Source: Candidatus Nomurabacteria bacterium (GTDB taxonomy: Bacteria; Patescibacteriota; Minisyncoccia; Phycocordibacterales; UBA9973). From it: a DNA stretch of 64,000 nt. The stretch is taken from positions 233,165-297,164 of the forward strand of contig JAPLXS010000006.1 of the NCBI GenBank assembly GCA_026395965.1, read 5' to 3'. The notes under the pieces are model-generated. The model did not search any database and was not told the origin of the DNA. It saw only the letters and a program-made list of their open reading frames with translations. A program made the position numbers and the translations under genes. Positions 1,383-58,966 of this stretch are shown in pieces. Numbering within the stretch: the stretch's first letter is position 1; each line of letters starts with the position of its first letter.

Positions 1383-2375
1383 ATGTCAAGCCCAAACAAA
1401 ACAAATAAAGATGAGGGATTCTTAGACCAAACATTGCGTCCGGGTATTTGGTCGGACTATATAGGTCAAGAAAACATAAAAGCCAACCTTAAAATACTAC
1501 TCACTGCAGCAGAAGAACGCTCCCACCCTGCTGAACATATACTATTTTACGGACCGCCGGGACTTGGAAAGACTACACTCGCTCATTTAATAGCAAAAGA
1601 AACAAATAGACAAATCAAAATAACGTCTGGTCCAGCTATTGAAAAAGTTGGTGACCTTGCTTCTATTTTAACCAACCTATCCCCAGGAGATATTGTCTTT
1701 ATAGATGAAATACATAGACTAAATAAAATGGTAGAGGAAATACTTTATCCAGCTATGGAGTCAGGTGTACTTGATATCATTATAGGCAAGGGTCCATCTG
1801 CTCGTACAATACAACTAGAGCTCCCCCCTTTTACTCTCATAGCAGCTACTACTCGCATAGCACTTCTGTCCTCACCTCTTCGTTCTCGATTCTCTGGTGG
1901 AGTGTTTCGTTTAGAATTTTATACCAATGATGAAATCAAAAAAATAATAAATCGCTCTGCGAAAATACTTGGGGTAGAACTAGAAGATGAAGCTCTAGAC
2001 GAGATAGCTAAGCGTTCACGTTTTACACCTCGTACTGCAAATTATTTTCTAAAGCGTTGCAGAGACTATGCCCAGGTCAATAAAGCTATACTATCAAAAG
2101 ATGTTGTCAAAAAATCATTGGCTTTACTTGAAATAGACGAGCTTGGATTGTCTTCTTCTGATAGACGAATACTAGATATAATAATTTCTAAATTTAATGG
2201 CGGTCCAGTAGGTTTGAAAACTATTGCTGCAGCTACTTCTGAAGAAGAAGCTACTATAGAAGAAGTTGTAGAACCATACTTAATACAGCTTGGATTACTC
2301 GACCGCACAGCAAGAGGAAGAGTTGTAACAAAAAAAGGTTATGAACATTTGGGTTATGAATTTATAGAAAATTAA
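1383..2375 (+). CDS. ruvB: Holliday junction branch migration ATPase RuvB
   Basis: AAA+ Walker [18 protein letters not shown], Walker [11 protein letters not shown], RuvB C-terminal winged helix. Confidence 0.95.
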
Positions 2376-2406
2376 GAATTAAGAATTAATAATTACGAAT
2401 TAGGAG
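2371..2406 (+). repeat. Heptamer array (ATTAAGA ATTAAGA ATTAATA ATTACGA ATTAGGA); the ruvB stop codon lies in the first unit
   Basis: 7-nt periodic GAATTAN/TAATTAN tandem units; same family recurs at 11115, 12471, 12579, 19341, 19884, 20286, 58918. Confidence 0.7.
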
Positions 2407-2562: not shown

Positions 2563-3054
2563 ATGAAAATACTATCAATCGATCCTGGTTTTGAAAGAGT
2601 TGGAATAGCTATCATAGAAAAAACTTTCTTAAAGAAGGATTTATTGGTGTACTCAAATTGTTTTAAAACATCAGCAAAGATTCCATTCCCCCACCGACTT
2701 AGAGACATAGGTCTTGAAATTGAAACAATCATAAAAAAATACAAACCCGAAGCACTGGCAATAGAAAAACTATATTTTACTACAAACCAAAAAACTGCTA
2801 TGGGTGTAGCTGAAGCACGAGGAACTATAATATATGTATGTTCAAAAAATAATCTTACTATTTATGAATACACACCTCCACAAATAAAAGTTGCTGTTAC
2901 GGGATATGGTAAAGCTACAAAGAGTATGGTGATGTCTATGGTTCCAAAACTTATAGATATGAATGCCGATATAAATTCAGACGATGAGATAGATGCTATC
3001 GCTATAGGGCTCACTTGTCTTGCTTGTGAAAATGCAGATTTTGTAAAAAAATAA
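2563..3054 (+). CDS. ruvC: Holliday junction resolvase RuvC
   Basis: N-terminal MKILSIDPGFERVGIAI RNase H-like motif, size 163 aa, adjacent to ruvB. Confidence 0.9.
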   Translation: MKILSIDPGFERVGIAIIEKTFLKKDLLVYSNCFKTSAKIPFPHRLRDIGLEIETIIKKYKPEALAIEKLYFTTNQKTAMGVAEARGTIIYVCSKNNLTIYEYTPPQIKVAVTGYGKATKSMVMSMVPKLIDMNADINSDDEIDAIAIGLTCLACENADFVKK

Positions 3055-4687: not shown

Positions 4688-7189
4688 ATGAGAAAACATA
4701 TCAAAAAATTCAATATTAAAAACATTATTTTAGTTATTTTAGGGATTGGTCTACTTTTTACTGGTATTCTGATTGCTTGGATTAGTACACTACAATTACC
4801 AGATTTTAAATCTTTTACTGAAAGAAAAATTCAGAGCTCGTCAAAAATATACGATAGAACTGGAACTATTTTGCTCTACGATGTACATGAAAACATAAAA
4901 AGAACTGTTATCCCTTATGAGCAAATGGGTGTTAATATTTTAAACGCAACAGTTGCAATAGAAGATTCTGAATTTTACCAACACAATGGTATTCGTATTT
5001 CATCTATAATCCGTGCGACTATTTGGACAAAATTAACAGGCAAAAAAGTTCAAGGTGGGTCAACTATAACTCAACAACTAATTAAAAATACTCTTTTAAC
5101 ACCTGAGTTGTCTATAACCAGAAAAGTAAAAGAGTGGATGCTGGCTCTTAAGTTGGAAAAAGTTATGACTAAAGACGAAATCCTTGCTCTTTATTTAAAT
5201 GAAGTTCCATACGGAGGAAATATATACGGTATAAAAGAATCTTCTATCGCTTTTTTTGGTAAAAATCCAATAGATTTAACACTAGCTCAGTCCGCATATC
5301 TAGCAGCTATTCCAAATGGTCCAACTTATTATTCTCCATATCGTAAAAATAAAGACAAACTCGATGAACGTAAAAATTTGGTATTAAAAAGAATGCTAGA
5401 TTTAGGTTTTATAAAAGAAGATGAATACAACAAAGCAAAGAATGAATTGGTTACATTTTTACCAGAACAACCTATGCACATAGCGGCACCTCATTTTGTT
5501 TTTTATATTAAAGATTATTTAGAAAATAAATATGGTGTTGATGCTCTTGAGGGCGGGGGTTTAAAAATAATAACTACACTAGATTACAATCTACAGAAAA
5601 AGGCTGAGGAAGTGGCACTGGTTAAAGCAAGAGAAAACGAAAAAAATTGGGATGGTAAAAATGCGGCAGTTGTTGTTATAGACCCAAAAACTGGGCAGAT
5701 ACTTTCTATGGTTGGTTCTAGAGATTATTTTGATAAAACAACTGATGGGAATTTTAATGTGGCAACTGCTTCTAGACAGCCTGGTTCTTCGTTTAAACCT
5801 ATAATATATTCACTTGCTTTTGAAAAAGGTTATACAGAAAAAACAACACTATTTGATGTTAAAACTGAATTTAATAGTTCTTGTGACCCTTCAGCATCAT
5901 CAAATTCAACTACTTGTTATTCACCAGATAACTATGACAATGCTTTCCGTGGTCCCATGACACTAAGAGATGCTCTTGCTCAATCTATAAACGTTATAGC
6001 TGTAAAACTTCTATACCTAGTTGGTGTTTCAGATGCTATTAAACTAGCCCATAATTTAGGTATAAGTACTTTAAAAAATGACCCCAATTTGTATGGTTTA
6101 ACTCTTGTTATTGGAGGAGGAGAAACAACCCTACTTGATATGACTTCTGTTTATGGAGTTTTTGCAAATAATGGTATTAAAAACCCAACTACTGGAATAA
6201 TATCTGTGGAAGATGGATCTGGAAATATACTAGAAAAAACTGAGCTTGCTTCTCAGCAAATAATAAAACCAAATACAACACATATTCTTTCTAGTATATT
6301 GTCTGATGATGCAGCGAGAACTCCTACTTTTGGAGCACATTCAATATTAAACATACCAGGCAGAGAAGTCGCAGTTAAAACAGGTACAACAAACAACAAC
6401 AAGGATGCATGGACTATTGGATATACGCCTTCTGTGGCTGTTGGTGTGTGGGTAGGTAACAATGACAACAAACCAATGAAAAAAGGTGGTGCAGCTCTTG
6501 CTGGGCCCATATGGAATGCTGTAATGTCCGAAGCACTAAAAAACCTACCAGTAGAATCTTTTGAGAAACAAGAACCTATAGACCAAACAATCCCACCTAT
6601 TCTTCGTGGTTTTTGGCAAGGTGGAGAAACTTTCACAATTGATTCTATATCTAATGGATTAGCAACAGAATACACTCCAGAAGAACTAAAAAAAGAAACA
6701 TCTATAACCAATGTTCATACTATTTTATATTGGATAAATAAAAACAATCCTCTTGATGCATTTACATCACCACAAAAAAATGACTCACAGTTTAAAAACT
6801 GGGAGTACGGTATACAAAAATGGTGGAATATAAATAGTTCTAAATACAAAACAGTAACTTCATCTGATATACCAAACACAGTAGACAACATACACACATC
6901 TCAATCAAAACCCACTTTTGAAATAAGTGGAATTGAAAACAAAATATATAAAAAAAATGAGACTATAAATATTTCTGTTTCTTCATCAAACAAAAATCCT
7001 ATTGTAAAATTAGATGTTTTTATAAACAATACATATTTAACATCAATAAAATCGTACCCTCTTTCAACATCATTTATTCCAAACAACATAAACGATATTT
7101 CTACTTTAAATACTATACGTGTTATTGGTGTAGATAATTTTGGAAATAAAGGTGAGCAAAAAATATCTTTTAGCGTAGAAAATAACTAA
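4688..7189 (+). CDS. Class A penicillin-binding protein (glycosyltransferase GT51 + transpeptidase) with C-terminal Ig-like extension
   Basis: N-terminal TM, GT51 motif EDSEFYQHNGI, transpeptidase SGSSFKP (SxxK), SRD, KTGTT. Confidence 0.9.
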   Translation: MRKHIKKFNIKNIILVILGIGLLFTGILIAWISTLQLPDFKSFTERKIQSSSKIYDRTGTILLYDVHENIKRTVIPYEQMGVNILNATVAIEDSEFYQHNGIRISSIIRATIWTKLTGKKVQGGSTITQQLIKNTLLTPELSITRKVKEWMLALKLEKVMTKDEILALYLNEVPYGGNIYGIKESSIAFFGKNPIDLTLAQSAYLAAIPNGPTYYSPYRKNKDKLDERKNLVLKRMLDLGFIKEDEYNKAKNELVTFLPEQPMHIAAPHFVFYIKDYLENKYGVDALEGGGLKIITTLDYNLQKKAEEVALVKARENEKNWDGKNAAVVVIDPKTGQILSMVGSRDYFDKTTDGNFNVATASRQPGSSFKPIIYSLAFEKGYTEKTTLFDVKTEFNSSCDPSASSNSTTCYSPDNYDNAFRGPMTLRDALAQSINVIAVKLLYLVGVSDAIKLAHNLGISTLKNDPNLYGLTLVIGGGETTLLDMTSVYGVFANNGIKNPTTGIISVEDGSGNILEKTELASQQIIKPNTTHILSSILSDDAARTPTFGAHSILNIPGREVAVKTGTTNNNKDAWTIGYTPSVAVGVWVGNNDNKPMKKGGAALAGPIWNAVMSEALKNLPVESFEKQEPIDQTIPPILRGFWQGGETFTIDSISNGLATEYTPEELKKETSITNVHTILYWINKNNPLDAFTSPQKNDSQFKNWEYGIQKWWNINSSKYKTVTSSDIPNTVDNIHTSQSKPTFEISGIENKIYKKNETINISVSSSNKNPIVKLDVFINNTYLTSIKSYPLSTSFIPNNINDISTLNTIRVIGVDNFGNKGEQKISFSVENN

Positions 7190-7457: not shown

Positions 7458-7486
7458 TTGTGAAAAATTCTTAATTATTAATTACT

Positions 7487-11114: not shown

Positions 11115-11240
11115 TTAATAATTAGGAATTAAGAATTACTAGTACCCAATAGGTCATTCTACTGAATGAGGCGTTTTGCTAAATCTGGAATTAAAAACCC
11201 CAATTAACCAAAATTCTTAATTCCTAATTTTTAATTATTT
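11115..11240. repeat. Inverted pair of heptamer arrays (11115-11140 forward, 11211-11240 reverse-complement) flanking a 70 bp core
   Basis: ttaataattaggaattaagaattact ... aaattcttaattcctaatttttaattattt. Confidence 0.6.
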
Positions 11241-12009: not shown

Positions 12010-12477
12010 ATGTATAAAGATAAAATAAAGGAGGCAGTTGAAAGTATATTTAAACATACAGCTTGTACTATTACAAAGTGTGATTTTTCAGAAGAGAGTG
12101 GAATGCTTTGGTGTATGATAGAAACACCAGATTCAAACTTTATGATAGGTAGAGATGGGGAAACATTACGCTCACTCAACCATATAATTCAAAAGATTGT
12201 AGAAAAAGATACAATAAAAACAGAAGAAAAAGGACCAAGTATATTTATCGATATAAACGGTTATCAAAAAAAGCGATTTGAGAATTTAAAGAACATAGCT
12301 CACATGATGGCAGAGAGAGCCCGTTATTTTAAAAGCAATATAGAGATAGATCCAATGCCCGCATTTGAAAGAAGAATAGTACACATGTTCTTGGAAGGCG
12401 CCAAAGATATCAAAACAGAGTCAGAGGGCTACGGACCTACGAGAAGAGTTGTTATAAAATACATAGAGAGTAATTAA
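12010..12477 (+). CDS. jag: Jag/KhpB RNA-binding protein (KH + R3H domains)
   Basis: R3H motif RRIVHMFLEG...GYGPTRRVVI; downstream of yidC. Confidence 0.8.
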   Translation: MYKDKIKEAVESIFKHTACTITKCDFSEESGMLWCMIETPDSNFMIGRDGETLRSLNHIIQKIVEKDTIKTEEKGPSIFIDINGYQKKRFENLKNIAHMMAERARYFKSNIEIDPMPAFERRIVHMFLEGAKDIKTESEGYGPTRRVVIKYIESN

Positions 12478-12634
12478 GAATTAATAATTACGAATTAGGA
12501 ATAAAAAATACCATGACAGTGTCATGGTATTTTTTATCTAGTATTATTTTTTTAATTTTTAATTATTGTTCTCTCCCCTATTCCAATTCCTAATTCCTAA
12601 TTCCTAATTCGTAATTATTAATTCTTAATTATTT
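12471..12634. repeat. Heptamer array (12471-12502), terminator hairpin (12503-12536), then inverted 8-unit heptamer array (12579-12634)
   Basis: taattaagaattaataattacgaattaggaata | aaaaaataccatgacagtgtcatggtatttttt | tattccaattcctaattcctaattcctaattcgtaattattaattcttaattattt; stop codons of jag and of the 503 aa gene lie inside the arrays. Confidence 0.7.
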
Positions 12635-16565: not shown

Positions 16566-18395
16566 TTATGAATTTGTTGAAAGTAAGTCTTTCTTGGCTT
16601 TTTGAATAGCAAGTATTTGTGATGGATCTGAAGTAATGATCTGGTCCTCTGTATAAGAAGCTATTGTTTTAATAGCAACGTGTTTTAGCCCAGCAAAGAA
16701 TATACCCTCGCCTACATTTGCTTCAAGTAAGAGGTATTTTTCTTCATCTGTGAGGTTGAAAGTCTTTTGTAATACATCTATGGTTGCTGGGGATTGTTTC
16801 AAGAGTAGTTGAATAGATGAGTTTGTAACAATAGGTATACCATAAGGACTTTTCATAAAATCTCCTACGTCCTGAGTGATAGTAGCAAGACCTAGATAGT
16901 ATTTACGTCCTCTTTTTGCAATAGAATACAAGAAAGAAGCAGTATCTTCTGATTTCATCATCCACCAAGCCTCATCAACTACGAGCAATCTCTTTTTGAT
17001 ATTTTTACGGATAGAATTCCAAATATAGTGAGTGATTATATACATTGCGACAGGCTTAAGCTCATCCTCCATGTCTCTAACAGAAAAAACAATAAATTTT
17101 CTATTTATATCTACGTTTGAAGGCTGGTTTAAGAATGAAGCCCAAGAACCATGAGTATATTTTACCAATCTCTGCATAAGAGACTCACTTCCCTCCATAC
17201 CAGAAAGAACTACTTCAAAGTCTGAGAGCATTGGAGGTTCAATATTCATGAAATCTGAATTGGTTGTTATGTCTTTCAAGGCATAAGTTTCAGTAATAGC
17301 AGAGTCAACAAGTGAATCTTCTTCTGGTGTAAGTCCACCAAGCATTATTCTAAATAGACCAACAAGATTTATGGTATTTGCACGGAGTACATCAGCACCA
17401 GTTTCATCTCCTGTAGGTATTGGTAAGTCAAAAGGGTTTATGTGGTGGTCTGAAGAAAGAGCAATGTTGAAATATCTACCTCCCACTGCTTCTGCTAGGT
17501 ATTCGTATTCGCGTTCAGGGTCTATAACAATAACTTCTGTATCAAACATCAAAGTACGAATAATCTCTAGTTTTGTGGCATAAGATTTACCTGCACCAGC
17601 TGTAGCAAAGGTAATAGAGTTGTAGTTTGGTAAAGAAAATCTATCAAAAAGTATAAGACTAGAGTTATGACGGTTTACCCCATATAGTATTCCCCTATCT
17701 TCTGTTAGGTCAAAGGATACAAATGGGAAAATACTTGAAAGAGGTTCAGTATTTAGTTTTTGGTGTATACCTAAAATATCTGTACCTAATGGTATGACAC
17801 TTTTGAAGCCCTCATTTTGTTGAAATAATGCAGGTTTAAGATAAATAAGCTTTGAATCTAGAAGAGATTTTATCTCGTTCTCAATTTTAAATAAATCATT
17901 GTCATTCTCGGCATATACAGTGATATAAAGCCCGACATCAAACATTTTCTCTTGAGCTTGCATTAGATTGTTTCTCAAATCCTCTAGGTCTCTGTATGCT
18001 GTATCTAGCATCGGGTCACGAACGAGACCTTTTGATTCACGAATAGAAATCTGACTTTGAACCTCAGCTACTTTTTTCTGGAAAGATCTCATTATTTCTG
18101 CTGTATCTATAGGATGAATAAAAATAGAAATATCATAAACCTTGTCCAGGTTTATGATTGGAGAAAACCAGTTGTCACTGAGGTATCTTGGGTATGATAT
18201 TACGAAAAATGTTCTAGCTATTTTATCTCCAAGATTTAAAGATTTTGGTGTTATTTGAAGAGCAGAAGGAGCAATAATATCTTGTAGCTCAAGAGTTGCA
18301 GCTTTGTAGATTTCACTAGGCAAAACAGGCATAACCATACTTCGGTTATTTTTAAGATCGTCCCCTTTTCCAAATAATGATGAAAATATTGACAT
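16566..18395 (-). CDS. VirB4/PrgJ-type type IV secretion ATPase, central + ATPase portion (apparent C-terminal fragment of a split gene)
   Basis: VirB4 mid-region ARTFFVISYPRYL, Walker A ATAGAGKSYATK, Walker B RLLVVDEAWWMM. Confidence 0.8.
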   Translation of the reverse strand: MSIFSSLFGKGDDLKNNRSMVMPVLPSEIYKAATLELQDIIAPSALQITPKSLNLGDKIARTFFVISYPRYLSDNWFSPIINLDKVYDISIFIHPIDTAEIMRSFQKKVAEVQSQISIRESKGLVRDPMLDTAYRDLEDLRNNLMQAQEKMFDVGLYITVYAENDNDLFKIENEIKSLLDSKLIYLKPALFQQNEGFKSVIPLGTDILGIHQKLNTEPLSSIFPFVSFDLTEDRGILYGVNRHNSSLILFDRFSLPNYNSITFATAGAGKSYATKLEIIRTLMFDTEVIVIDPEREYEYLAEAVGGRYFNIALSSDHHINPFDLPIPTGDETGADVLRANTINLVGLFRIMLGGLTPEEDSLVDSAITETYALKDITTNSDFMNIEPPMLSDFEVVLSGMEGSESLMQRLVKYTHGSWASFLNQPSNVDINRKFIVFSVRDMEDELKPVAMYIITHYIWNSIRKNIKKRLLVVDEAWWMMKSEDTASFLYSIAKRGRKYYLGLATITQDVGDFMKSPYGIPIVTNSSIQLLLKQSPATIDVLQKTFNLTDEEKYLLLEANVGEGIFFAGLKHVAIKTIASYTEDQIITSDPSQILAIQKAKKDLLSTNS

Positions 18396-18672
18396 CCCGT
18401 TAGAGATAGGAAGCGCCTAATCTGTTTTTAAGATAACGCTTACCCATTCCCGATTTTAAATATAATTCTCTCGACCGAGCTTTTTTCTCGCTCTTACATG
18501 CTTCATAATAAATAATTTCAAACGGACCTCTTCCTTTTGTATAAGTAGACAAACCATTGTTGTGTTGCAGAAGGCGTTTCCGTAAATCTTTTGTACTTCC
18601 TGTGTATATATTACCATCTTTTTTACTTTTTAATATATAAGTGTAATAAAACATATATAATCTCTAACGGGA
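18395..18672 (-). other. Inverted-repeat leader element, site 2 (TCCCGTTAGAGAT ... ATCTCTAACGGGA) with GIY-YIG gene nested between the arms
   Basis: 13-bp perfect IR; GIY-YIG ATG 5 nt inside the upstream arm, its TAA stop inside the downstream arm, which directly abuts the VirB4 ATPase ORF ATG. Confidence 0.6.
18400..18654 (-). CDS. Small GIY-YIG nuclease family protein (UPF0213/YhbQ-like)
   Basis: FYYTYILKSKKDGNIYTGSTKDLRKRLLQHNNG...YTKGRGPFEIIYYE, 84 aa. Confidence 0.8.
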   Translation of the reverse strand: MFYYTYILKSKKDGNIYTGSTKDLRKRLLQHNNGLSTYTKGRGPFEIIYYEACKSEKKARSRELYLKSGMGKRYLKNRLGASYL

Positions 18673-18683
18673 CCAGTATAATA

Positions 18684-19337
18684 TTATTGTAGTTTCATTC
18701 CTTGGCTAGTGTCGCCAGGGTTAAATGTTTTATAAAAAAGCTCGACTACTTGGTCTGTTTTAAGTTGAGAAGTTCTGATGCCTACTCTACCAAGACCACT
18801 GATAATAACACCTACTCTCTGGTCGAGCTGTGTACGCTTCTCCTCAAATGAAGCCATATCCATTGCCTTTTTTGTATCTTCTATTTGTTTTTTTGGAGCA
18901 CCGCTTCCCATAAAACTATCCATCATTTTATTGCTAGACTTTATAACATTTGCACTGTAAGGTACAACAATAAAAAAAGTTTTTGTCATTATATTTACTT
19001 CGTCAGTAAATGATTTTATGAAGTCTATGTATTCTTTGGTTTGTATTTTTAAAAGAGGCTCTGTTTGCTCTTTTAATCTTTCTTCTAGGGTCATTAGGTA
19101 TGGGCGTATGTCCAATCTGCGTGATTGCATACATATTTGAGTTGGAAAATCTAAACCGTTGAGAAAATTTTGGAACTCACTTATGATAGCTGTTTGTTCG
19201 TCTGCTGATTTAAGAGATAAGTTTAGAGAAGATGCTAGTAGTATAGAACGAAGACCACCATCCTTTAGTATGATGATGCCATTTCTTACTTCTTTAATTG
19301 GTACAAACTCCTGAGAGCTTTTTGCATCTATTGCCAT
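18684..19337 (-). CDS. VirB4/PrgJ N-terminal domain protein (apparent N-terminal fragment of split VirB4)
   Basis: Gram-positive VirB4 N-terminal pattern QEFVPI..NGIIILKDG...LNLSL...EQTAIISEFQNFLNGLD..TQI. Confidence 0.55.
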   Translation of the reverse strand: MAIDAKSSQEFVPIKEVRNGIIILKDGGLRSILLASSLNLSLKSADEQTAIISEFQNFLNGLDFPTQICMQSRRLDIRPYLMTLEERLKEQTEPLLKIQTKEYIDFIKSFTDEVNIMTKTFFIVVPYSANVIKSSNKMMDSFMGSGAPKKQIEDTKKAMDMASFEEKRTQLDQRVGVIISGLGRVGIRTSQLKTDQVVELFYKTFNPGDTSQGMKLQ

Positions 19338-19340
19338 ATA

Positions 19341-19446
19341 AAATAATTACGAATTAATAATTACGAATTTATAACTAATAACATTGTACCATATTACAAA
19401 TAATTAAGAATTATTAACCTTACTCCCTAATTCCTAATTATTAATT
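19341..19446. repeat. Heptamer arrays (19341-19370 and 19401-19419 forward; 19425-19446 reverse) in the 5' leader of the VirB4-N ORF
   Basis: aaataattacgaattaataattacgaattt ... taattaagaattattaacc ... ccctaattcctaattattaattt. Confidence 0.6.
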
Positions 19447-19455
19447 TATAATTAT

Positions 19456-19875
19456 TTACTCCTTCTCTCCTCTATTACTATCCTGCACATCTAAACTCCA
19501 CGAAAGGTCTTTTAGTTTATTTGATGTAACCATAGGAACAACAGATACTAGTTGTGGAGTAGAAGATTCTTCTTTTTCTTTAATTTCTGGTTTTACAAGT
19601 CTTTGTTTCCATATATATAATTTACCAGAAATAAAATAATTAAAGGCAGCTTCAAGGTAATAGATAAATGGCTTTTCATTTATCTTGTAAAATACCAAAA
19701 GAAATGACAATACACCTATGGGTATTATTAAAAATATACCAATCCACAAAGGAAATAATTTATAAACAACAAAGGCCATACCAGCCCCACCAACAATATA
19801 TATAAATTGGCGAAAAGTAAAAGGGCCAAATAATTTGTCCTCGACGTCAATAAATTGTGGTACTTTGAATTGCAT
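19456..19875 (-). CDS. PrgI/VirB3-like small two-TM type IV secretion protein
   Basis: 139 aa, pattern DVEDKLFGPFTFRQFIYIVGGAGMAFVVY + second TM, located upstream of VirB4 as in PrgI-PrgJ. Confidence 0.55.
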   Translation of the reverse strand: MQFKVPQFIDVEDKLFGPFTFRQFIYIVGGAGMAFVVYKLFPLWIGIFLIIPIGVLSFLLVFYKINEKPFIYYLEAAFNYFISGKLYIWKQRLVKPEIKEKEESSTPQLVSVVPMVTSNKLKDLSWSLDVQDSNRGEKE

Positions 19876-19883
19876 ATAATGGG

Positions 19884-19915
19884 TAATTACGAATTAGGAA
19901 TTAATAATTACGAAT
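19884..19915 (+). repeat. Heptamer array (forward) left of the four-helix-bundle gene
   Basis: taattacgaattaggaattaataattacgaat. Confidence 0.6.
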
Positions 19916-19921
19916 GAACGA

Positions 19922-20272
19922 TTAAGATCTGGATGTTTTTATAATCGAACCAAGTATTTTTAATAATTCTTCACATTCACACATAAGTGTACCAGATTGT
20001 TCCTTGTTTAGAAAACCACTATCTGATAAAAGCTGTAACCAATAAAGTGTTTCCCTTGCCTCTTTGTATGAAATACTCATCTTTGAGATGAAATCATTTT
20101 TTGATTGTGCCCCTATTGCCTCCTCTATATTTGCCCCAATAGATGTTCCGGATCGAATTAATTGTTTTGAAAGAATAAATTCTTTTTTGTCTTTAGTTAA
20201 ATCCTGATATATTTTTATTATATTAAGACTGAAGGCATAACTCTTACTTCTTACGATATTGTCCGACTTCAT
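19922..20272 (-). CDS. Four-helix-bundle protein (TIGR02436-like; family commonly found in 23S rRNA intervening sequences)
   Basis: QLIRSGTSIGANIEEA...KMSISYKEARETLYWLQLL signature, 116 aa. Confidence 0.75.
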   Translation of the reverse strand: MKSDNIVRSKSYAFSLNIIKIYQDLTKDKKEFILSKQLIRSGTSIGANIEEAIGAQSKNDFISKMSISYKEARETLYWLQLLSDSGFLNKEQSGTLMCECEELLKILGSIIKTSRS

Positions 20273-20285
20273 TTTTTTTGATTTA

Positions 20286-20318
20286 AATTCTTAATTCCTA
20301 ATTATTAATTCTTAATTT
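20286..20318 (-). repeat. Heptamer array (reverse orientation) right of the four-helix-bundle gene
   Basis: aattcttaattcctaattattaattcttaatttt, inverted relative to 19884-19915. Confidence 0.6.
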
Positions 20319-20319
20319 T

Positions 20320-21441
20320 CTAAAACTCTTCCCTATAAGGGTCATGTGATTTTGGTGAAGAAACAGTATTTGAAGGTAAAGGAGACGGAGTAGATATTTT
20401 GGGAATTGAATAGTCTGAAACAGTATGATCACTCATAGTTATACTTTTTAATTTGTCCCCCATAGATATGGCTTGTGTATTTACAATAGGAGACTTGGGA
20501 ATAGGAATACTAGGTTTTACTTCCCATGCATCTTTTAGCTCGTCTTTTATTTTAACAGGAGTTTCTATTTTTGTAGTTATATGTTCTATGTAATCAAGCC
20601 TATCTTCTTTTTTTATTATACTAGCACTTTGTGCTACGCTTTCTGTTGGTTTTTTAATTTCTATAACTTCTTCTATTTTGGGTATTGTTGTTTGTACTGC
20701 TGGGAGCTCTATACTTGATTTTGCATAAGGAGGAACAGGAACCTTGTCCTCGCTCTCTACTTTCATATCACTACCGTTTATTTTTTCTTGCTCATTCTTT
20801 TTCATAACCTCTCTAATGTTAATGAAAATATTTTCATTAACATCTTTTATTAGGTCTGAAATTTCTTCTTTTGGTAGTGGTATTTTAGAAATTATTTCAC
20901 CCTCGTATTTATCTGAATGTATAACATTTTGTATTACTTTTACTGTTATATCTTCTATAATACCCATCTGCTCGATGTTTAATTTGTATTTCTTTGATAT
21001 CTCGTAAAGCTTATTTTTCCAGTCAGAGCCTGCTATCGCCTCCTGAATATCTTTTGGCATAGTAATAAAACGAGGGTCTAAAATCAAAGGTTTTTTTTCA
21101 AAAACTGTTTTGGCTGTTCTTTCTAGTTTTTTCTTTAACTCCTCGGCAATTTTTTTGAAAATTAATCTATCGAGTTCACCGAGTAGGATGTTTGTATCAT
21201 CATTAGTTATTCTCATTCTGGATTGAATTTCTTTTTGATATTCTTCTGGTTTTAAAATTCCGCATAGAAGTAATTCAGTTTCTGTTGAAAGATCATCAAG
21301 TTGCTCGGGGCTGTATTTTTTATTCATCTCTAGAATAACCAATTTCCAATTTACACTATCAATAGCCTCCCGACTTTCTTTTGAAAGGAGTGCTCTTGCT
21401 TCTTCTATTTGAATTTTAAGTAAATCAACTTTGGTATCCAT
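20320..21441 (-). CDS. Hypothetical coiled-coil protein with Pro-rich C-terminus (secretion-locus component)
   Basis: 373 aa, charged helical repeats, no enzymatic motif. Confidence 0.5.
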   Translation of the reverse strand: MDTKVDLLKIQIEEARALLSKESREAIDSVNWKLVILEMNKKYSPEQLDDLSTETELLLCGILKPEEYQKEIQSRMRITNDDTNILLGELDRLIFKKIAEELKKKLERTAKTVFEKKPLILDPRFITMPKDIQEAIAGSDWKNKLYEISKKYKLNIEQMGIIEDITVKVIQNVIHSDKYEGEIISKIPLPKEEISDLIKDVNENIFINIREVMKKNEQEKINGSDMKVESEDKVPVPPYAKSSIELPAVQTTIPKIEEVIEIKKPTESVAQSASIIKKEDRLDYIEHITTKIETPVKIKDELKDAWEVKPSIPIPKSPIVNTQAISMGDKLKSITMSDHTVSDYSIPKISTPSPLPSNTVSSPKSHDPYREEF

Positions 21442-50133: not shown

Positions 50134-50191
50134 ATCCCGCACCATATTAAAAAAACACCTTGATAGGTGTTTTTTTAATATGGTGCGGGAT
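50134..50191. terminator. 26-bp-arm perfect palindrome incorporating the 3' acceptor end of the adjacent tRNA
   Basis: atcccgcaccatattaaaaaaacacc ttgata ggtgtttttttaatatggtgcgggat. Confidence 0.6.
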
Positions 50192-50254
50192 AAGGGAGTC
50201 GAACCCTTCACCACAGTTTGGAAAACTGTTATTTTACCGATAAACTAATCCCGC
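50181..50254 (-). tRNA. tRNA-Gly (anticodon UCC), CCA encoded
   Basis: Acceptor GCGGGAT, anticodon stem ACAGT/ACTGT with loop TTTCCAA, T-arm GGTTCGACTCC, 3' CACCA. Confidence 0.75.
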
Positions 50255-50318: not shown

Positions 50319-50543
50319 AGTGTATGCTTATTGGTTATTGTGTGAACAATAATAAATGCAGGGATATCTTTCTCTTTGAGAAGAGTTGCATATATGTACG
50401 GGAACGCGAGTATGCTTATCGACTACTGCGTAAGCAGGGATATCTTTCTTTACGATAACAGTTGTATGTATAGATGAGAACGTGAGTACGCTTATCGACT
50501 ACCACGTAAACCGGGATATCTTTCTCTACGAGAACAGTATGCC
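50319..50543. repeat. About three imperfect tandem copies of a 76 bp unit between two tRNAs
   Basis: Units begin gagtaYgcttatcgactacYRcgtaa...gggatatctttctYt; both halves of each unit are conserved. Confidence 0.7.
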
Positions 50544-50629: not shown

Positions 50630-50690
50630 CCCCGACAATAAGTAAAAAGACCACTAATTTATTTAGTGGTCTTTTTACTTATTGTCGGGG
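50630..50690. terminator. 28-bp-arm perfect palindrome incorporating the tRNA-Pro 3' end
   Basis: ccccgacaataagtaaaaagaccactaa ttta ttagtggtctttttacttattgtcgggg. Confidence 0.6.
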
Positions 50691-50755
50691 TGCCGGGAAT
50701 CGAACCCGGCCCTTATGTTCCCAAAACATAGATACTACCGATATACTACACCCCG
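50685..50755 (-). tRNA. tRNA-Pro (anticodon UGG)
   Basis: Acceptor CGGGGTG/CACCCCG, anticodon stem TATGT/ACATA with loop TTTGGGA, T-arm GGGTTCGATTCCC. Confidence 0.75.
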
Positions 50756-57734: not shown

Positions 57735-58916
57735 TTACGCCTCTGTACCATCATCTACTATCCCATCATCTATATTACTATCAGCTTCCTTATTTTCTTC
57801 TTCGTTTGTTTTTGAGTCAGCACTTTTGATATCTATTCTCCATCCTGTTAGTTTCGCAGCAAGACGAACATTTTGTCCTCCTTTTCCGATAGCTAGAGAC
57901 AATTGATCAGTTGCTACTTCTACTGTTGCTTTGTGTTCAGCATCATTTACTTCTATGCCTAGTACGTTGGCTGGTGATATAGAACTTGATATATATGTAG
58001 CTGCATCAGGAGACCAAGGAATAATATCTATTTTTTCTCCATTTAATTCACTCATAACAGTAGTTACGCGAACTCCTTTTTGTCCTACACATGAACCCAC
58101 TGGATCTACGTGCTCATCATTTGAAAATACAGCAATCTTTGAACGGCTTCCAGCTTCACGAGCAATAGATTTTATTTCTACTACTCCTCCTGCTATTTCG
58201 GGAGCTTCCATAGCAAAAAGTCCTTCTATAAGTTCTGGATGCGTACGAGAAAGCTTTAGATTTACTCCGCGTGGAGTTTCTTCTACTGAATACAAATATG
58301 CACGGATTCTCTCGCCACGACGATAGAACTCACCAGGGATTTGTTCTTCAGGCAAGATAATACCTGTAGCACGATTGAAGTCGATATATACGATTCCTCT
58401 TTCTACCTTAGAAACGAATCCGTTTATTATTTCTCCTTCCTTTGTTCCGTATTCGTCTATGATAGCACTACGCTCTGCTTCACGGATTTTTTGTATGATA
58501 ACTTGCTTTGCAGTTTGTGCAGCAATACGTCCATAATCATCTTTGTTTTCAAGAGGGAATATAAGTTCGTCTCCTGTTTTAACGTCATTTTTGATTTTTT
58601 TAGCATCTTCTAATAGGATGTGATGTTCTTCGTTGAAGCGAACTCTCTCATCATCTTCGGAAATCTCTTCTTCCTCTTCGTCTTCAGTTGTCATTCTGAC
58701 AAGAGTATCATCTACAGCTATTTTGATTTGATAGAATTCCATTAAACCAGTATCTACATCTATCTTTGCTCTTATAATTTGACCCTTTTTGCCGTAATCT
58801 TTTTTGTATGCAGCAGCAAGAGCTTGCTCTATAGCATCTATTATTTTTTCTCGAGGAATTTTTCTTTCTACCTCAAGCTGCTCAAGAGCAGATTTCATTG
58901 TTTTTAAATCCAACAT
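57735..58916 (-). CDS. nusA: Transcription termination/antitermination factor NusA
   Basis: N-terminal domain, S1, two KH motifs (IGKGGQNVRLAAKLTGWRIDI). Confidence 0.9.
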   Translation of the reverse strand: MLDLKTMKSALEQLEVERKIPREKIIDAIEQALAAAYKKDYGKKGQIIRAKIDVDTGLMEFYQIKIAVDDTLVRMTTEDEEEEEISEDDERVRFNEEHHILLEDAKKIKNDVKTGDELIFPLENKDDYGRIAAQTAKQVIIQKIREAERSAIIDEYGTKEGEIINGFVSKVERGIVYIDFNRATGIILPEEQIPGEFYRRGERIRAYLYSVEETPRGVNLKLSRTHPELIEGLFAMEAPEIAGGVVEIKSIAREAGSRSKIAVFSNDEHVDPVGSCVGQKGVRVTTVMSELNGEKIDIIPWSPDAATYISSSISPANVLGIEVNDAEHKATVEVATDQLSLAIGKGGQNVRLAAKLTGWRIDIKSADSKTNEEENKEADSNIDDGIVDDGTEA

Positions 58917-58917
58917 A

Positions 58918-58966
58918 TAATTAATTACGAATTAAGAATTAAAAATTACGAATTGATAATTAATAA
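58918..58966 (+). repeat. Heptamer array directly upstream of the nusA start codon
   Basis: taattaattacgaattaagaattaaaaattacgaattgataattaataa. Confidence 0.6.

Follow-up and report, generated by a model that had tools for sequence, protein, structure and literature searches.

The only match we found in the literature to a combination of heptamer repeats with a gene of the four-helix-bundle (4HB) family is offered by the heptamers of Coxiella, where the intervening sequence of the 23S rRNA gene contains an ORF of the same family enclosed by a 28-bp terminal stem (PMC4990558). Three to four tandem heptamers (GACAGAT), whose copy number differs among strains, precede this ORF on the 5′ side of the stem, RNase III cuts at the first repeat, and the ORF itself is decaying and apparently untranslated (PMC4990558). 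IVP genes have also been described within cas operons (PMC3936711; PMC10910872) and in CPR 16S and 23S insertions (PMC11270868), and Avd, which is pentameric and interacts with nucleic acid and with a reverse transcriptase (PDB 4DWL, 8UB7), belongs to the same Pfam family (PMC10053308). Another kind of heptamer repeat is the cyanobacterial STRR, 7-bp repeats which form hairpins in the hupS-hupL spacer and elsewhere (PMC2670836). In the literature searched, no tie of the STRR to a gene family was found. STRR were reportedly also described by Vioque in 1997 inside an RNase P RNA gene.

REP/RAYT systems consist of a small gene between inverted copies of a short repeat, together with numerous repeat pairs that enclose no gene and lie at gene 3′ ends; the RAYTs are HUH/Y1 transposases and the REPs are single palindromic units. 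Correia elements and certain other MITEs are small, carry terminal inverted repeats, reside in spacers and are co-transcribed, their stems are cut by RNase III and some of them contain promoters; Correia elements possess defined terminal repeats and a TA target duplication. To our knowledge, 4HB/IVP genes are among the commonest unexplained small genes of Bacteroidota, Cyanobacteria, CPR and other phyla, and both the STRR heptamers and the rRNA intervening sequences have been without an explanation for decades.

In the window, i.e., the whole stretch of 64,000 nucleotides that was analysed (GC content 32%), two neighbouring genes of a type IV secretion-like operon are separated by a 4HB gene, which is bracketed by two arrays of tandem heptamers. 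Tandem Repeats Finder detects two arrays of period 7, one at 19885-19915 (4.4 copies, AATTACG) and one at 20286-20317 (4.6 copies, AATTCTT), and inverted arms of 38 nt with 82% complementarity extend over 19892-19929 and 20280-20317. These results confirm the bracket of inverted heptamer arrays announced in a preliminary description of this DNA, as well as the position given there for the gene, between a PrgI-like gene and the upstream gene of the operon. The heptamer unit of the cassette is AATTANG; searching the window for AATTANGAATTANGAATTA with at most two mismatches yields 33 matches, vs 0.12 expected from shuffles. Read along the minus strand, the stop codon of the 373-aa gene is followed after 2 nt by the sense units and then by the 4HB ORF, whose stop codon is overlapped by the second array, a complement array on the transcript; 9 nt further on lies the ATG of the PrgI gene. 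The coordinates are collected in Table 1. On the minus strand, which is that of the cassette, no match to a sigma-70-like promoter or to a terminator was obtained within 19884-20318, and Rfam searches of the whole window and, with permissive settings, of 19300-20400 assigned neither the arrays nor the cassette to an RNA family.

Table 1. Cassette, host genes and further heptamer arrays in the window.
Feature	Position	Strand	Remarks
Upstream host gene	20320..21441	-	373 aa; no confident Pfam family; co-directional with the cassette
5′ (left) array	20283..20317	-	minus-strand units AATTAAG AATTAAT AATTAGG AATTAAG AATTTAA
4HB gene	19922..20272	-	116 aa; ATG start; from the ORF list of the window
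3′ (right) array	19885..19926	-	plus-strand units AATTACG AATTAGG AATTAAT AATTACG AATGAAC GATTAAG
Downstream host gene	19456..19875	-	PrgI-family (PF12666) membrane protein of the type IV secretion-like operon
Gene-less facing pair	19342-19379/19426-19453	-	PrgI/TraC-like spacer; encloses a TGnTACAAT -10-like box (19383-19393)
Gene-less facing pair	12472-12506/12582-12630	.	spacer of convergent genes; fold z = -6.6
Gene-less facing pair	11113-11140/11209-11236	+	around a conserved non-coding core of ~60 nt; fold z = -4.7 to -5.4
Solo sense array	2370-2404	+	overlaps the stop codon of gene 1383..2375
Solo array	7463-7486		found by the heptamer scan
Solo array	58923-58964	+	just upstream of the start of minus-strand gene 57735..58916

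The product of the ORF is identical to a protein of a Candidatus Nomurabacteria MAG annotated by NCBI as 'four helix bundle protein'. In profile searches it matches PF05635 (1.1e-28, 100 bits, cut-off 33.8) and TIGR02436 (8.2e-33, 112.9 bits, cut-off 24); these were the sole matches, and no nuclease or recombinase domain was found. The AlphaFold (AF2) model, computed with 18 homologs as input, consists of four helices with a pLDDT of 95.2. Its closest solved structures are BT_0352 (2RLD, five chains; Foldseek TM 0.90, phmmer 1e-30), the pentameric Xcc0516 (2GSC, TM 0.7-0.8) and the Avd of diversity-generating retroelements (4DWL, 8UB7), with a TM of about 0.75 at a sequence identity of only about 15%; Foldseek found no transposase-like structural match to the model. 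A conserved motif GxxRxxxSxxxNxxE has been reported for the PF05635/TIGR02436 family (PMC3936711), and the corresponding residues R40-x3-S44-x3-N48-x2-E51 are invariant in our alignment A1, while the leading G of the motif is Q37 in this subfamily. The dN/dS of the gene is 0.04-0.15, and strong purifying selection therefore acts on the protein. Further paralogs within the window were not detected by tblastn.

The family had been introduced in the preliminary description as typical cargo of 23S rRNA intervening sequences. Membership of the family holds, as the profile matches show; the rRNA setting does not, given that all the copies that we surveyed adjoin protein-coding genes, usually inside operons. 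No 23S motif was seen in any surveyed locus, using a few motif strings, and the window contains no rRNA, the only Rfam matches being four tRNAs. The comparison of GC and codon usage with the neighbours, suggested in the same description, revealed no contrast: GC and GC3 of the gene equal those of the operon. We therefore rejected a recent import and regard the cassette as an old, compositionally adapted resident, a view to which the dS of nearly 1 among carriers also leads.

Like the 23S rRNA intervening sequences of Coxiella burnetii and Leptospira, the cassette has an ORF of the S23p/IVP family within stem-forming terminal inverted repeats. Unlike them, it resides in the spacer of an operon mRNA and not in helix 25 or 45 of rRNA, and it departs from the Coxiella element in its heptamer as well as in the strong selective constraint on its ORF. 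With the STRR it shares tandem 7-bp repeats located in spacers, and the gene-less facing pairs of the window resemble the STRR hairpins; on the other hand, the STRR are described as specific to cyanobacteria, whereas here the host belongs to the CPR, the unit is AATTANG and the arrays bracket a protein gene. The resemblance to REP/RAYT lies in a gene within inverted repeats accompanied by gene-less pairs, and the difference in a protein without a recognisable catalytic domain and in repeats that are heptamer arrays. We rejected membership among the REPtrons, since no HUH/Y1 transposase was met between the repeats, only the PF05635/TIGR02436 match. As in Correia elements and MITEs, gene-less pairs enclose a -10-like box or a terminator; unlike Correia elements, the ends are heptamer arrays of variable length, a target duplication was not found and a coding version exists. 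Finally, the protein has the same four-helix-bundle fold as Avd. A diversity-generating retroelement was nevertheless discarded, because a profile scan of ten neighbouring ORFs revealed no reverse transcriptase domain and heptamer arrays are the only repeats of the cassette region.

To compare the operon among relatives, 80 orthologous operons were collected with the TraC-like 217-aa gene as anchor and six genes were mapped in each (loci are designated by L-numbers). The usual order is the 373-aa gene, PrgI, the TraC-like gene and the C-terminal half of VirB4. Most of these operons have bare spacers of 0-60 nt that lack heptamers, and no 4HB gene. The gene together with its arrays occupies the window's slot only in L001-L004, L008/L130, L090, L101 and L104, the last being diverged, and it lies one slot further along, between PrgI and the TraC-like gene, in L005/L006, L110 and L111. 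In the tree of TraC-like proteins the relatives that branch off at the base have bare spacers, carriers of the one slot and of the other belong to separate clades, and the window's clade is a mixture in which carriers and non-carriers alternate. The small inserted cassette proposed in the preliminary description thus stands: the gene is present in a subset of the operons and in two slots, its copies in the window's slot always come with arrays, and a conserved, array-free presence was not seen. Very probably, then, the cassette is an inserted unit. No target-site duplication was evident between bare and filled spacers of these relatives, which are too diverged (dS about 1) for boundaries to be defined, and no precise empty/filled pair from very close strains was found; its mobility is consequently read from the distribution rather than observed. 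In L104, AATTACT-type units form both arms of a bracket of about 1 kb (about 1510-2500) with two genes, the diverged 4HB gene and a zinc-ribbon-like ORF (MMVNCPECNADISSQADPCPQCGF...), so that the arrays can carry larger cargo.

The preliminary description had also proposed a search for other 4HB genes flanked by arrays, and such genes turned out to be recurrent. We scanned one genome per species and obtained 80 loci with homologs of 51-81% identity, mainly from the subfamily nearest to the query and with gene bounds set by simple rules. They come from Gammaproteobacteria, Planctomycetota, Verrucomicrobiota, Lentisphaerota, Bacteroidota, Chloroflexota, Firmicutes, Acidobacteriota, Ignavibacteriota, CPR and others. 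In the 120-nt flanks of the 4HB genes the median period-7 score is 16 (of 21), compared to 9 in controls, and the inverted-repeat score of the flanks exceeds the 99th percentile of controls in 57 of 84 4HB genes but in only 5 of 820 random controls. Of the 4HB genes, 70% reach an inverted-repeat score of 11; when the boundaries of other long ORFs of the same loci serve as controls, 3.6% of these do so (Fisher p = 1e-28). Within 150 nt of a 4HB gene the density of arrays is 28-fold that found elsewhere. The prevailing units are AATTACG, AATTAGG or AATTAAG, regardless of the GC content of the host.

Nine more records from curated genomes (seven cyanobacteria, Treponema and Chondrinema) display the same bracket with other heptamers. 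The units are GTCGGAR in Nostoc punctiforme, CAGTKAV upstream and ACTGGTC (12 copies) downstream in Euhalothece, AATTCAA in Aulosira and N. flagelliforme, AAGTAAA in two cas2/4HB/cas1 loci, a GC-rich unit in Treponema, and NNNCAGT in Chondrinema, where the cassette lies between two RND efflux genes. STRR-like units are found at the 4HB genes of Euhalothece and Chondrinema, in line with the bracketing of cyanobacterial 4HB genes by arrays of this kind. In Pontibacter, two 4HB copies are placed among sucA, sucB and lpd, each with a separate heptamer type. Taken together, this distribution suggests a selfish cassette widespread across many bacterial phyla. Plasmids and phages were considered as vehicles and set aside, since such copies are rare there (31 of 72,556 and 2 of 50,697 records, respectively).

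In the two cas loci, from Nostoc sp. TCL26-01 (L172, 389-745) and Anabaena cylindrica (L173, 389-736), the AAGTAAA-bracketed 4HB gene is located between cas2 and cas1 on the opposite strand. Such insertions, or the repeat arrays as such, may be what lies behind the published 'CRISPR association' of the family. In an Opitutales locus (L016, 1300-3740) the 4HB gene is preceded by a series of CCTAATT/AATTAGG arrays, and a truncated ORF at 2190-2408 carries the N-terminal signature of a related 4HB subfamily, which suggests tandem, decaying cassettes.

The two arms of a cassette are not independent of each other. Compared with the reverse complement of the right consensus, the left one deviates by 0.57 positions within a gene and by 1.96 between genes, and in 8 of 10 genes whose upstream consensus is not of the AATTA type the arms match within one position; both arms thus change heptamer type together. 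Within the AATTA class, a gene's own arms pair with -33.1 kcal/mol and swapped arms with -25.8 kcal/mol (p = 0.0035). The arrays have a fixed polarity with respect to the cargo: upstream, 28 genes have sense units only and one has complement units only, while downstream the complement-only genes number 21 and the sense-only genes one. Typically there are 3-5 units per side. In 73 of 77 cases the gene upstream of the cassette runs in the same direction. The left array adjoins or overlaps the stop codon of this neighbour (the median gap is -2 nt) and often supplies the stop.

For the window's cassette itself the picture is less specific. In the minimum-energy fold the two arrays are paired with each other and enclose the ORF, and the fold energy of the whole cassette is no better than that of shuffled sequence (z = -0.48). 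Its arms form a duplex of -23.7 kcal/mol, a value matched by 75% of the arms swapped in from other genes, and the variable positions are largely mismatched. Hence the stem is only generically complementary, and we rejected a fine-scale complementarity specific to these arms. A test for G.U-compatible mismatches, as a sign of pairing in the sense RNA, was not significant (38 vs 29, p=0.33), and the arms may therefore pair at the DNA level or be recognised by a protein.

The same heptamers recur at about seven other sites of the window, as three facing gene-less pairs and as solo arrays (Table 1), so that heptamer arrays are not unique to the 4HB gene and also stand without it; gene-less pairs occur in relatives too. 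The three pairs of the window fold better than shuffled sequence (z = -4.3 to -6.6). The one at 19342-19453, predicted to fold as RNA into a hairpin (z = -4.3), occupies the slot in which L005, L110 and L111 have the 4HB gene. The array at 58923-58964, read on the minus strand, is a complement array ahead of an ATG.

Some features enclosed by these arrays, or close to them, deserve a separate description. Inside the facing arrays of the pair at 12472-12630 lies a perfect terminator-like hairpin (12505-12535; AAAAAATACCATGACAGTGTCATGGTATTTTTT). The array-bracketed core of ~60 nt (11139-11200) reads AGTACC..TAGGTCATTCT..TGAATGAGG..CTAAA.C.GGAAT; it matches no Rfam family and does not resemble the 4HB gene. 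A conserved copy, also between arrays, lies in the secretion operon of a different genome (L001, about 4870-4935), a setting unrelated to the site in the window; it was shown by direct alignment and missed by blastn-short across the loci. Between the array at 2370-2404 and the gene 2563..3054, a long inverted repeat with a GC-rich interior (TCTTATCAGAGGG ... CCCTCTGAGAAGA) spans positions 2450-2530, with no Rfam match at gathering thresholds.

Our best reading of these data, to which we assign a probability of roughly 60%, is that array, 4HB gene and inverted array make up a promoter-less, self-contained hitchhiker and not a piece of secretion machinery; the cassette is best seen as a hitchhiker of the intervening-sequence type that resides in an mRNA spacer. 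It was very probably inserted in the spacer between the two operon genes. Its transcription would be due to read-through from the host gene, and its translation probably to ribosomes that terminate at the host stop codon and re-initiate behind it. Once transcribed, the arrays could pair to form an AU-rich stem of about 30-38 bp that would bring the host flanks together, and RNase III might cut this stem, by analogy with the Coxiella 23S rRNA intervening sequence. That the arms serve as an RNase III stem on the transcript is a proposal that we rate slightly below even odds. The protein would serve the element and not the host operon, in analogy with the pentameric, nucleic-acid-binding Avd, while the gene-less pairs may be non-autonomous relatives or landing sites, and recombination between array pairs is one conceivable route of movement.

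Some observations fit this scheme poorly. A plain stem leaves unexplained why the arms take the form of heptamer arrays and why their polarity is fixed. Read-through is not universal, since the gene of the cas2/4HB/cas1 loci is antisense to both neighbours in some cyanobacteria. Furthermore, the arrays of slot B bracket a TGnTATAAT box that is found also in bare spacers, and the presence of a -10-like box in both the bare and the bracketed slot B is hard to square with a single insertion.

Periodicity and fixed polarity are what repeated binding sites would give, and the arrays could be primarily putative sites on DNA or RNA for the 4HB protein, each heptamer being bound by a single protomer of an Avd-like pentamer. 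In that case the cassette would recognise itself, for autoregulation, protection or mobilisation, and the pairing of the arms would be secondary. The usual 3-5 units per side and the pentameric state of the closest structures (2RLD with its five chains, 2GSC, Avd) agree with this possibility, as does the correlation between protein and heptamer similarity (rho -0.47, Mantel p=0.0005), which is however confounded by shared ancestry. Nearest-neighbour proteins are often unlike in heptamer type, and proteins 75% identical have unrelated heptamers (GTCGGAG in Nostoc punctiforme, GGAATTT/AATTACG in Dolichospermum), which leaves a strict co-specificity of protein and heptamer unsupported and argues against strictly sequence-specific recognition. 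Overall, we hold this explanation to be unlikely. A system of the REP/RAYT kind, acting on DNA, in which a putative 4HB enzyme or cofactor would mobilise the hairpin-forming arrays and the gene-less pairs would be its non-autonomous copies, appears quite improbable. It would account for a gene within inverted repeats with many gene-less pairs at gene ends, for the bracketed 60-nt core at unrelated sites of two genomes and for the strongly conserved polar residues (R40, S44, N48, E51 and others), yet it has to contend with a protein that matches no nuclease or recombinase profile and no transposase structure, with the lack of visible target-site duplications and with the quick turnover of heptamer types.

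The remaining explanations deny the cassette its unity or its independence from the operon. Replication slippage in AT-rich spacers could have produced the arrays as neutral repeats to which the gene is merely adjacent; the low GC content of the window is compatible with this, and the copy number of the arrays varies between near-identical contigs (L001 vs L002). However, arrays flank the gene also in GC-rich hosts and also as GC-rich heptamers, they are enriched 28-fold near it and exceed the 3.6% seen at real ORF boundaries by far (70%), and arm matching and polarity hold across about ten heptamer types, so that slippage is already contradicted and very improbable. Hardly credible at all is a role of the protein as a true accessory part of the type IV secretion-like system, e.g., as chaperone or regulator. 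Its gene is co-oriented and tightly packed in the operon and is under purifying selection in several related lineages; it is nevertheless missing from most orthologous operons, sits in another slot in the clade of L005, L110 and L111, and has relatives inside unrelated operons (sucA/sucB/lpd of Pontibacter, RND efflux genes of Chondrinema, cas genes). This distribution largely refutes an accessory function.

A 4HB family with flanking inverted heptamer arrays was not found in the literature, in a search that left most subscription journals and database family notes outside its range. More broadly, and only as a tentative proposal that we think likelier to be wrong than right, the 4HB/IVP genes with inverted arrays, the ORF-carrying rRNA intervening sequences and the STRR hairpins could be one pan-bacterial class of selfish cassettes, which would insert behind operon stop codons and into structural RNA genes, with an Avd-like pentameric protein acting on the array stem and with incidental links to cas genes. 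If cassettes behind host stop codons are what these genes represent, three separate puzzles would become one testable element, and the 'association' of 4HB genes with cas, secretion and metabolic operons would amount to hitchhiking. In annotation, 4HB genes should in that case not be taken as functional parts of the operons that surround them.

The operon and its relatives show other peculiarities. An 84-aa GIY-YIG gene (18400-18654, minus strand) separates the TraC-like N-terminal ORF (18684-19337) from the VirB4 ATPase ORF (16566-18395); most orthologous operons are without it, whereas L122 has it in the same slot and L106 in the PrgI/TraC-like slot, and it looks like a second, independent mobile gene of the operon. 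The TraC-like/VirB4 slot, which harbours this gene in the window, contains in nine related operons (L090, L095, L101, L106, L132, L137, L139, L142 and L158) an element of ~125 nt with terminal inverted repeats CCCGTTAGAAG...CTTCTAACGGG (L090, 3652-3777). The VirB4-like ATPase of the window is split (16566-19337) into a 217-aa N-terminal ORF and an ATPase ORF of ~609 aa; the split is found in every ortholog showing both parts and is therefore a conserved feature of the lineage, not caused by the GIY-YIG insertion. A TGnTATAAT box, located 5-12 nt ahead of the following ATG, makes up most of the bare operon spacers (L088, L089, L097, L102, L118, L120), and these extended -10-like boxes suggest internal promoters and leaderless or near-leaderless mRNAs in these CPR genomes. 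Finally, a 76-nt tandem repeat (2.4 copies, 81% matches) is found at 50358-50538, between the genes for tRNA-Gly (50181-50254) and tRNA-Pro (50684-50755).
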